64,000 nt of DNA from Octopus vulgaris. Its lineage: Eukaryota. Under the pieces are notes generated by a model. That model searched no databases and had not been told where the DNA came from. It saw only the letters and a list, made by a program, of their open reading frames with translations. Shown piece by piece: positions 24,658-29,580 of the stretch. The stretch is taken from positions 106,764,001 to 106,828,000 of the forward strand of contig OX597820.1 of NCBI GenBank assembly GCA_951406725.2, written 5' to 3'. A program made the translations under genes and the position numbers. How positions within the stretch are numbered: position 1 is the stretch's first letter; each line of letters begins with the position of its first letter.

Positions 24658-24698
<41 letters not shown>

Positions 24699-24704
<6 letters not shown>

Positions 24705-25218
24705 TATATAGAAGGAGCTTCTACAGGACTAGTACTGTTTCATTCAAGAGAAATCTTCAGGAAGCATGCTTCCTGAAGATTTCTCTTGAATGAAACAGTA
24801 CTAGTCCTGTAGAAACTCCTTCTATATAATAAATTAATTTTACTCTGCTATGTATTGAGTACCTTACTTACTGTGGTTAACCCCGAATCAACCCGGGACC
24901 TACATATCCTAGCACACCCCAGCTTCCTGAAGATTTCTCTTGAATGAAACAGTACTAGTCCTGTAGAAGCTCCTTCTATATAATAAATTAATTTTACTCT
25001 GCTATGTATTGAGTACCTTACTTACTGTGGTTAACCCCGAATCAACCCGGGACCTACATATCCTAGCACACCCCAGGAGCTTCCTGAAGATTTCTCTTGA
25101 ATGAAACAGTACTAGTCCTGTAGAAGCTCCTTCTATATAATAAATTAATTTTACTCTGCTATGTATTGAGTACCTTACTTACTGTGGTTAACCCCGAATC
25201 AACCCGGGACCTACATAT
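24699..25218. mobile_element. Inverted + tandem array of ~155-bp hammerhead-ribozyme-containing units in (TA)n (retrozyme / Penelope pLTR-like)
   Basis: Units start at 24768, 24922 and 25079. A 68-bp inverted partial unit at 24699-24766 creates a 136-bp palindrome. (TA)n flanks both sides. Confidence 0.85.
25075..25131 (+). ncRNA. Type I hammerhead ribozyme (best copy; others at ~24768-24820, ~24921-24974 and minus-strand ~24765-24713)
   Basis: Stem I AGGAGCTTC/GAAGCTCCT; core CTGAAGA; stem II (T)TTC-tctt-GAA(T); GAA; stem III ACAG-tactagtc-CTGT; cleavage triplet GTA ending at 25122. Confidence 0.75.
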
Positions 25219-25469
25219 ATATATATATATGTGTGTGTGTAAACGAATCTCATCGCAATCCTACTAATATCACGAAAACGGCATCACAAGGACTAATGTT
25301 CATTTTTAAGGACCAGGAAATACTTCAGTTCTGGTTAGTGGTTGACTCTTCAAATTTCGTGTAAGATCAACTTTGAATTTCTGCGCTCATGCACAGGACG
25401 ATACTGCTGTTTGATACACTTACATCCGAAACCGCCTCTAAAACAAGGCTATTTCGATGGAATAACAAC

Positions 25470-27946: not shown

Positions 27947-28149
27947 AATCATGCCAAAGTAGTTTGGAGGATGAAGCAGTCCTTGGGCCCATTAGATCAC
28001 GTCAAACCATCCAGCCCATGCCAGCACAGAACATGACATTAAGTGATGAAGATTATGGTGTTAAAAGCAACTACATTGTGGAAGAGCTATTCTAACCATT
28101 TAATAACACACAAAACTGTTAAATTCACTTTGAATTTATTTTATGAATA

Positions 28150-29580
28150 TTGAACTACAGAGGTATCAAGCTGTTGGATCAGGTGATGAAGGTTACGGAG
28201 AGGGTCATAGCCCAACTAATTAGAGAGAGAGTTAGTTTAGATGAGATGCAGTTTGGGTTTGTGCCAGGGAAAAGTACTACTGATGCTATATTCCTGGTAA
28301 GGCAGCTGCAGGAGAAATACCTAGCCAAAGATAAGCCCCTGTACCTGGCTTTTGTTGACATGGAGAAAGCCTTAGACAGGGTCCCCCGATCCCTTATCTG
28401 GTGGGCAATGAGGAAACTAGGGATAGATGAATGGTTAGTGAGAGCTGTGCGGGCCATGTATAGGGACGCTGCTTGTAGGGTGAGGGTTGGAAATGAGTAC
28501 AGTGAAGAATTCCGGGTAGAGGTAGGGGTCCACCAAGGCTCAGTACTCAGCCCCCTCCTATTTATCATAGTCCTCCAGGCAATAACGGAGGAATTCAAGA
28601 CAGGATGCCCTTGGGAGCTCCTCTATGCTGATGACCTTGCTCTAATTGCTGAGTCGCTATCAGAACTGGAGGAGAAGTTTCAGGTGTGGAAACAAGGATT
28701 AGAATCGAAGGGCCTCAGAGTCAATCTAGCTAAAACCAAAGTCGTAATCAGTAGGAAGGTAGACAAATCACAAACACCTTCAGGTAGATGGCCCTGCTCG
28801 ATCTGTAGAAAAGGTGTAGGTAGAAACTCTATAAGATGCACCAAGTATAAGCTATGGACACATAAGAGATGCAGCAATGTCAAAGGAAGGCTAACTAGGA
28901 AGATGGTTTTTGTATGTGGCAGATGCTCAGGAACAATAAACACTGAAAATGCTCTGAGACCAACTTCCGTCACTTTCCAGGGAGACAAACTAGAAATAGT
29001 TGATAGTTTCCGTTACCTAGGTGACCAAGTCAGCAGCGGGGGCGGGTGTGCTGAAAGTGTAACTGCTAGAGTAAGAATAGCTTGGGCAAAGTTCAGAGAG
29101 CTCTTACCTCTGCTGGTGACAAAAGGCCTCTCGCACAGAGTGAAAGGCAGACTGTATGATGCGTGTGTACGAACAGCCATGCTACATGGCAGTGAAACAT
29201 GGGCCGTGACTGCTGAGGACATGCGTAAGCTTGCAAGGGATGAAGCGAGTATGATCCGATTGATGTGTAATGTCAGTGTTCATACTCGACAGAGTGTAAG
29301 TACCTTGAGAGAAAAGCTGGACCTAAGAAGCATCAGTTGTGGTGTGCAAGAGAGACGTTTGTGCTGGTATGGTCATGTGGCGAGAATGGATGAAGATAGT
29401 TGTGTGAAAAAGTGCCACACCCTAGCGGTTGAGGGAACCTGTGGAAGAGGCAGACCCAGGAAAACCTGGGACGAGGTGGTGAAGCACGACCTTCGAACTT
29501 TAGGTCTCACTGAGGAAATGACTAGAGACCGAGACCTCTGGAAGTGTGCTGTGCGCGAGAAGACCCGGCAGGACAAGTGA
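28150..29580 (+). CDS. RTE LINE reverse transcriptase (partial, uninterrupted 476 aa) with PHD-like insertion
   Basis: NYRGIKLL, QFGF, FVDMEKA, GVHQGSVLSPLLF, LYADDL, FRYLG and RGRPRKTW motifs. There is no true ATG start and no endonuclease domain (5' truncated). Confidence 0.9.
   Translation: MNYRGIKLLDQVMKVTERVIAQLIRERVSLDEMQFGFVPGKSTTDAIFLVRQLQEKYLAKDKPLYLAFVDMEKALDRVPRSLIWWAMRKLGIDEWLVRAVRAMYRDAACRVRVGNEYSEEFRVEVGVHQGSVLSPLLFIIVLQAITEEFKTGCPWELLYADDLALIAESLSELEEKFQVWKQGLESKGLRVNLAKTKVVISRKVDKSQTPSGRWPCSICRKGVGRNSIRCTKYKLWTHKRCSNVKGRLTRKMVFVCGRCSGTINTENALRPTSVTFQGDKLEIVDSFRYLGDQVSSGGGCAESVTARVRIAWAKFRELLPLLVTKGLSHRVKGRLYDACVRTAMLHGSETWAVTAEDMRKLARDEASMIRLMCNVSVHTRQSVSTLREKLDLRSISCGVQERRLCWYGHVARMDEDSCVKKCHTLAVEGTCGRGRPRKTWDEVVKHDLRTLGLTEEMTRDRDLWKCAVREKTRQDK

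Follow-up and report, generated by a model that had tools for sequence, protein, structure and literature searches.

Penelope-like elements (PLEs) of the Hydra clade are marked, as described in PMC8557442, by a C-terminal endonuclease, RW[KR], DKT, a CxCx5C linker, CxxC and CxH, and the clade includes Hydra-1_Obim from Octopus bimaculoides. These elements are further reported to possess a hammerhead in their terminal repeat (pLTR), to target (TA)n and to occur as tandem or inverted insertions with a tail (PMC8557442). Metazoan non-LTR retrozymes are described as tandem units of about 150 nt that each carry a type I hammerhead and have no ORF (PMC7229834; 10.64898/2026.07.22.740005); the preprint among these two sources already derives retrozymes from the pLTRs of PLEs and gives a working definition of at least two consecutive complete motifs (10.64898/2026.07.22.740005). 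For a PLE of another clade, Poseidon of Anolis, in vitro work has been reported in which two internal RT starts define the "tail", the target is AT-rich, both strands are extended and mainly uncut RNA is used (PMC11167929).

In the window studied here, a stretch of 64,000 nucleotides of Octopus vulgaris DNA, the original prediction had placed such a retrozyme, built from three near-identical tandem units of about 155 nt. Repeat analysis of the window recovered these units as a tandem repeat at 24768-25218 (period 154, 2.9 copies, unit spacing 154 and 157), and they proved to be 99-100% identical to one another. In the length of its tandem units, its hammerheads and its lack of an ORF the array resembles the described retrozymes, and it should count as one under the preprint's working definition. 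It differs from them in being a single locus that is still identical to its autonomous parent, in its non-uniform joints and in the non-canonical closure of stem II; (TA)n forms both flanks, and no target-site duplication is visible within (TA)n. Positions within the unit are numbered from u0, the first A of hammerhead stem I (24921 in unit 2 and 25078 in unit 3 of the window), and the predicted cut falls between u44 and u45. The insertion comprises the following features.

24660..24700, no strand: (TA)n target, left flank (sequence and repeat analysis)
24699..24766, minus strand: inverted arm of 67-68 nt (u1-u67), a perfect hairpin with unit 1, ending at the short family terminus u67
24716..24765, minus strand: fourth hammerhead motif, within the inverted arm (descriptor scan, stems of 5/3/4 bp)
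24768..24920, plus strand: unit 1, pLTR u1-u138 and the start of the 5' UTR; hammerhead 24768-24817, predicted cut after 24811
24921..25076, plus strand: unit 2, u0-u155; hammerhead 24921-24971, predicted cut after 24965
25077..25077, plus strand: single G at junction 2, absent from the parent (genome-wide pattern)
25078..25216, plus strand: unit 3, pLTR u0-u138, ending at the long family terminus; predicted cut after 25122
25217..25240, no strand: (TA)n then (TG)n, right flank (sequence)

Read from left to right, the insertion thus runs from (TA)n through inverted u67 to u1, u1-u153, u0-u155, one G and u0-u138 back into (TA)n. The inverted arm (24699-24766) lies directly upstream of the array and is 99-100% complementary to it, and the third unit stops at 25216, where (TA)n starts. 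Neither this arm nor its hammerhead had been noticed in the original prediction; with the arm, the insertion takes the form usual for a PLE in (TA)n. The AG at 24921-24922 is common to the end of unit 1 and the start of unit 2, a microhomology of 2 nt. The two unit junctions, known from this assembly alone and with no contig from other runs listed across them, differ by 3 nt, and both sit at the main run-off point of the family and not at the predicted cut; the unit has neither a TATA box nor an ORF. The proposed processing into monomers of 154 and 157 nt is not supported. The 3-nt difference could stem from slippage or from an assembly error; homopolymers and hairpin arms seem to be affected by errors in this assembly. 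Stem I of the unit 1 hammerhead carries a G>A change; changes of this kind are recurrent and affect one hairpin arm only, the other arm being normal, in 15 of the 17 loci with the variant, and the change in unit 1 could reflect either an error of sequencing or a genuine hot spot.

Each constituent of a type I hammerhead is present: the CUGANGA core, GAAA, NUH, three stems and an open end in stem I. In unit 3 (hammerhead 25078-25128) the core spans 25084-25090, stem II 25092-25101 and GAAA 25103-25106, and stem III extends to 25121. A descriptor scan of the whole window found the hammerheads of units 2 and 3 and one minus-strand motif, and no others; unit 1 fails the descriptor through its stem I change. 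In 100 shuffled windows the scan returned 0.06 loose and 0 strict hits per window. The stems, CUGAAGA, the U-U in stem II, GAA(A) and GUA are hence as originally described, and the positions of the three predicted cuts were confirmed. The 9-bp stem I noted for unit 3 is present as well; it arises from the junction, the stem I of the parent measuring 6 bp. The Rfam hammerhead models, which had been proposed as a check, gave no match to the unit at the gathering score or at E<=10, and the Rfam miRNA matches at the locus were set aside as reflecting merely the perfect hairpin.

Stem II is closed by U-U in 73/73 and 77/77 copies, and the G10.1-C11.1 pair that usually closes hammerhead stem II and is conserved (PMC4209133) is absent. 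We regard U-U as a fixed trait of the family because it is present in all copies and the stem II of a sister family is likewise closed by a mismatch (A-A). The sister hammerhead occupies the same place and possesses GUA, with wholly different stems. The variant sites within u0-u50 shared by at least four copies were confined to N7 and loops II and III in 5/5 cases (p=5.5e-4). The comparison of genomic copies that had been proposed thus found core and stems preserved and a linkage to ORFs with RT and GIY-YIG; it revealed no covariation within the family itself, there being no compensatory stem changes among the copies compared. The restriction of shared variants to N7 and the loops, together with the fold kept by the sister family, supports the view that the type I hammerhead is under selection. 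Folding z-scores of single motifs were weak (-1.5, 0.2, 1.3). The 157-nt unit is predicted to fold into a hammerhead as a circle; for a transcript spanning the complete insertion, the prediction for the hammerhead stems does not exceed 14%. In vitro, PLE hammerheads cleave slowly, and that of the present family is a conserved, probably slow predicted ribozyme that would cut only a minority of templates. In contigs from runs guessed to be RNA, an A>G change was seen in 3 runs at u36 and in 1 contig at u44, the adenosine of the predicted cut (24803-24815 and 25114 of the window); these changes are absent from the DNA-like run X15 and could represent A-to-I editing of hairpin transcripts or alleles.

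The origin of the unit became apparent from a genome search, which yielded 47 matches from 40 scored of 110 candidates. The unit consists of the pLTR of a Hydra-clade PLE and 17 nt of its 5' UTR, and at 3/6 other loci it continues directly into the reading frame. Unit 2 (24921-25076) matches one such ORF-linked parent copy (L031) without a difference over 156 nt; in this copy the ATG lies at u182 and TATAAA at u-29. The predicted youth of the element was supported. One full period of the parent measures 5,193 nt, and an intact single ORF of 713 aa, with RT followed by a GIY-YIG-type endonuclease, is present in two copies. The protein displays RWR, DKT, YRDD, CxCx5C, YIG, CxxC and CxH but no CCHH, with RWR where the alignment consensus has RWK. 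The RT and endonuclease motifs hold in 51 homologues, in which D253, D349 and D350 are invariant. Pfam and PDB sequence searches did not recognise the 713-aa protein; among the 51 homologous members RVT_1 matches one and GIY-YIG two. Its assignment as an RT/endonuclease is accordingly drawn from motifs and homologues, and by its motifs the parent is a member of the Hydra clade. It shares with the described Hydra elements, including Hydra-1_Obim, the C-terminal endonuclease and the RW[KR], DKT, CxCx5C, CxxC and CxH motifs (PMC8557442), and a hammerhead in the pLTR, the (TA)n target and an inverted arm with tail were all found in the parent family. The supposed dependence on a Penelope-type RT was likewise supported, and the unit is the pLTR with the 5' UTR start of an autonomous element. 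The parent differs from the reported Hydra elements in its length (about 5.2 kb with a microsatellite-rich 3' UTR, versus under 3 kb) and in its tail (71 nt versus 30-40; PMC8557442), and the window array has no ORF. As far as the published Hydra-1_Obim sequence can be compared, that element has another N-terminus and other hammerhead stems and is, by eye, a separate family. The octopus repeat paper lists Penelope families, and no mention of a hammerhead was found in it.

A one-base frameshift in a C run at the RT/endonuclease border (e.g., L031:6358-6400) was seen in 80 of the 100 copies listed. We considered a programmed -1 frameshift at WYNPP (C6 in 80 and C7 in 15 among these 100 copies) and rejected it; a homopolymer miscall is the likelier cause because C-run length was not linked to subfamily in 30 loci and 3/4 substitution-interrupted runs were in frame. 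The sister family (L222-L234; e.g., L227:1044-3378), a second Hydra-clade family with its own hammerhead and many intact ORFs of about 727 aa, has 49% protein identity to the parent and a tandem period of 3.43 kb. A third, unrelated hammerhead fold-back insertion in (TA)n was found at L231:440-800, with the core lying about 25-30 nt downstream of its hairpin centre.

Across the genome, 4,370 copies end exactly at u138 and run into (AT)n, which, with the (TA)n on both flanks of the window array, agrees with the predicted (TA)n targeting. Another 108 copies read through past u138 into the 5' UTR, and 156 extend to the RT/endonuclease border. According to the original prediction the array would be an ordinary pLTR remnant if all other copies were attached to Penelope ORFs; most unit copies are ORF-less, yet these are truncated PLE insertions, which amounts to the same in spirit. 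The junction type of the window array had two genome matches, both inside the window, and with the unit being PLE pLTR and 5' UTR, the claim of an independent non-autonomous retrozyme family did not hold.

Start sites were scored for 93 of 100 listed u138 ends, all from the first 50 Mb of one contig (C1); two ends beside ORF-bearing copies and the last five listed were left out. Exactly at u0, 29 nt below the conserved TATAAA, began 25/93 copies (a script had placed 27 there, two of which were read-throughs of a diverged subfamily and were removed), and 0/93 sampled copies started at u41-48, around the predicted ribozyme cut. An adjacent inverted arm ending at u65-71 was present in 51/93, and 31 of the 93 formed mini-hairpins like the left end of the window array. 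The TATA box is nearly invariant and its distance fixed, with a variable spacer beneath it. We considered splicing as a source of the u0 junctions, an AG and a branch-like motif being found upstream; it was discarded, as the joints lack GT donors, AG is retained and the branch-like motif is changed in 17/29 copies. At one solo pLTR (L334, C6:46.750 Mb) the flank is duplicated in tandem at 388 nt.

The base between (TA)n and u0 was G in 35 cases (34 independent), C in 8, A in 4, T in 1 and lacking in 11, as counted with two patterns that differ by 4 bases in length. One extra G preceded 34/58 (TA)n-abutting u0 starts versus 0/8 other (TA)n-abutting starts, these controls having been picked by eye (p=0.002). 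In L1, an extra G is the accepted mark of a copied cap (PMC4859970). The G:C ratio fails as a cap test against the background, in which G follows ATATAT in 87% of G-or-C cases. Fold-back on stem I likewise predicts an extra G and fits 12 loci, with GG/AGG forms at about 4; the G at 25077 either copies a cap or belongs to a fold-back of 3 nt on stem I. Perfect palindromes are frequent among the junctions, and non-palindromic junctions occur at u0 too. Since inverted arms often end symmetrically at arbitrary positions, fold-back and twin priming are indistinguishable from the arms; these symmetric ends favour fold-back, and the use of u67 as a direct-strand end at three loci (L072, L073, L082) favours second priming. 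An argument for twin priming from arm length was dropped, weakened as it was by the higher-order repeats described below.

Internal junctions were found in 11 of 29 further read-through loci. Six of them link u0/u1 with a site in the body of the element (34 to 784 nt into it), in most cases through a G; in three loci the body is linked with the predicted cut (L085, L090 and, twice, L095), an A microhomology being present in two; the remaining two have their joints at u55 and at an upstream position. When the read-through loci and three long arrays are taken together, 3/8 non-u0 junctions fall at the predicted cut (p=4e-4, assuming a 150-nt range and with the cut site predicted beforehand). A genome-wide pattern gave 93 matches near the predicted cut. 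After removal of indel-like matches by hand, with the context checked for 69 loci, about 16 started at u45 versus 20 at u46-47. Under our own microhomology model this gives p=0.004 (0.014 with four doubtful matches retained), and under a harsher model p=0.05 (0.12 with them retained). These data modestly suggest cleavage in vivo for under about 1% of arms. They also set the family apart from Poseidon, for which no reads at the ribozyme cut are reported (PMC11167929), in contrast to the few genomic cut junctions found here. That both arms end at the cut was tried as further evidence and dropped, symmetric ends occurring anywhere. Two loci (L282, L297) have 3 nt and 1 nt, respectively, inserted exactly at the predicted cut, as if RT had crossed a nick, and one of the loci named above (L095, C15:44.664 Mb) carries a 125-nt tandem whose units start at the predicted cut, with two identical joints.

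The window locus descends from the Hydra-clade parent, has two fixed family ends (u138 and u67) placed head to head in (TA)n, is joined internally at the run-off point and contains a junction of its own. We consider it probable that the locus is a single ORF-less PLE insertion made by internal priming on capped, uncut RNA, run-off and two jumps. This account is favoured because of the identity with an ORF-linked pLTR, the 4,370 u138 ends, the unique junction, the pile-up at u0 and the extra G; in six of the 29 other read-through loci, the same jump to u0/u1 is seen from varied body positions. The PLE would be transcribed from its TATA promoter with a start at u0, placing the hammerhead at the capped 5' end. 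The RT/endonuclease would nick (TA)n and begin priming at an internal site, u138, on an RNA fragment that had not been cut, the template having presumably ended 17 nt into the 5' UTR; RT would then copy to the cap and jump to the 3' end of the same fragment, twice, leaving slightly different joints. Either another priming event, at u67, or cDNA fold-back would have produced the inverted arm, and the array, being without a promoter, is probably a dead end. Run-off at the transcript start and end-to-end jumps are what we infer here; in the available portions of the Poseidon report (PMC11167929) no description of them was found.

A retrozyme-style origin, in which two hammerheads excise a circle or multimer that undergoes rolling-circle reverse transcription and the locus is a member or founder of a family, is unlikely. 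In coral, mussel and axolotl, hammerhead tandem units of 150-450 nt are reported to give rise to circular RNA (PMC7229834), a circular form of the 157-nt unit is predicted to adopt the hammerhead fold, the 125-nt tandem begins at the predicted cut with identical joints, and three other arrays have one junction in both arms. Against this origin, the window junction is unique to its locus, the two joints are not identical, u0/u1 (where a linear RNA runs off) is the stopping point for both arms as for both joints, and the unit lacks a promoter and is predicted to form its stems poorly in the whole-insertion transcript. The three are single-locus arrays, with units of 271 nt (C8, 91.475-91.484 Mb), 277 nt (C2, 64.628-64.632 Mb) and 333 nt (C5, 37.481-37.489 Mb; together loci L032-L033 and L035-L038). 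All three derive from the parent PLE through internal deletions that differ from array to array; they are inverted in the middle and terminate at u138 and u66-67, and the C8 and C2 junctions had 45/45 matches at their own loci. Their units retain the TATA box, starting at about u-44 (C8), u-38 (C2) and u-87 (C5), whereas the window unit and the 125-nt C15 tandem are without one and form short arrays. To judge from sequence, these three arrays look more like newborn retrozymes and are better candidates than the window.

It is improbable that a simple truncated PLE insertion, carrying a single internal deletion, was later duplicated in place at the DNA level by slippage or unequal crossover. The window units are 99-100% identical, and in the C8 and C5 arrays 7-8 units at a time recur as higher-order repeats, which points to duplicated blocks or to multimeric templates; duplication of DNA would, however, have copied the junction exactly, and the window joints differ by 3 nt, like other u0 junctions. 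Most improbable is that the hammerhead is degenerate and inactive and the u0 pile-up due to the AGCT palindrome or to self-priming on an antisense template, as modelled for bdelloid PLEs (PMC3846280): the missing Rfam match, the U-U in place of G10.1-C11.1, the weak z-scores, the many palindromic junctions and the absence of in vitro cleavage reported for 8/9 Xenopus dimers (10.64898/2026.07.22.740005) would fit, and the confinement of variants to N7 and loops II/III, the fold kept by the sister family, the non-palindromic u0 junctions and the junctions exactly at the cut argue against it.

With internal priming, run-off and two jumps as the preferred reading, the locus is genuine but unexceptional, deriving from a new family of Hydra-clade PLEs, and its value lies less in itself than in the junction record of that family. 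How PLE pLTRs and inverted arms form, what the hammerhead does in vivo and where animal retrozymes originate are open questions in the field; thousands of near-identical copies, base-exact joints and intact ORFs make such questions testable. As a tentative proposal, which may well prove wrong, the family could preserve, in fossil form, both the PLE cycle and the birth of retrozymes. Priming on the 5' pLTR of capped RNA, run-off at the cap or at the ribozyme-cut end and a jump to the RNA 3' end would then, by pseudo-circularisation, make pLTRs and tandems with no circle being required; deletion units in which the TATA box happens to be retained (271, 277, 333 nt) would grow into long retrozyme-like arrays and those without it (154/157, 125 nt) stay short; and the GUA|G junctions would be genomic evidence of PLE hammerhead cutting in vivo, for which a literature search turned up no earlier genomic evidence. 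The locus also serves as a warning that screens combining tandem repeats and hammerheads will count one-off PLE insertions as retrozyme families.

Two further features were noted elsewhere in the window. An open frame of 477 aa at 28147-29577 (plus strand) encodes a LINE-type RT (Pfam RVT_1, E=1.5e-29). At 59036-59390 an 87-nt stretch occurs twice with a period of 147 and with (TA)n between the copies and on the flanks, possibly another (TA)n-targeting fragment that was duplicated in place.
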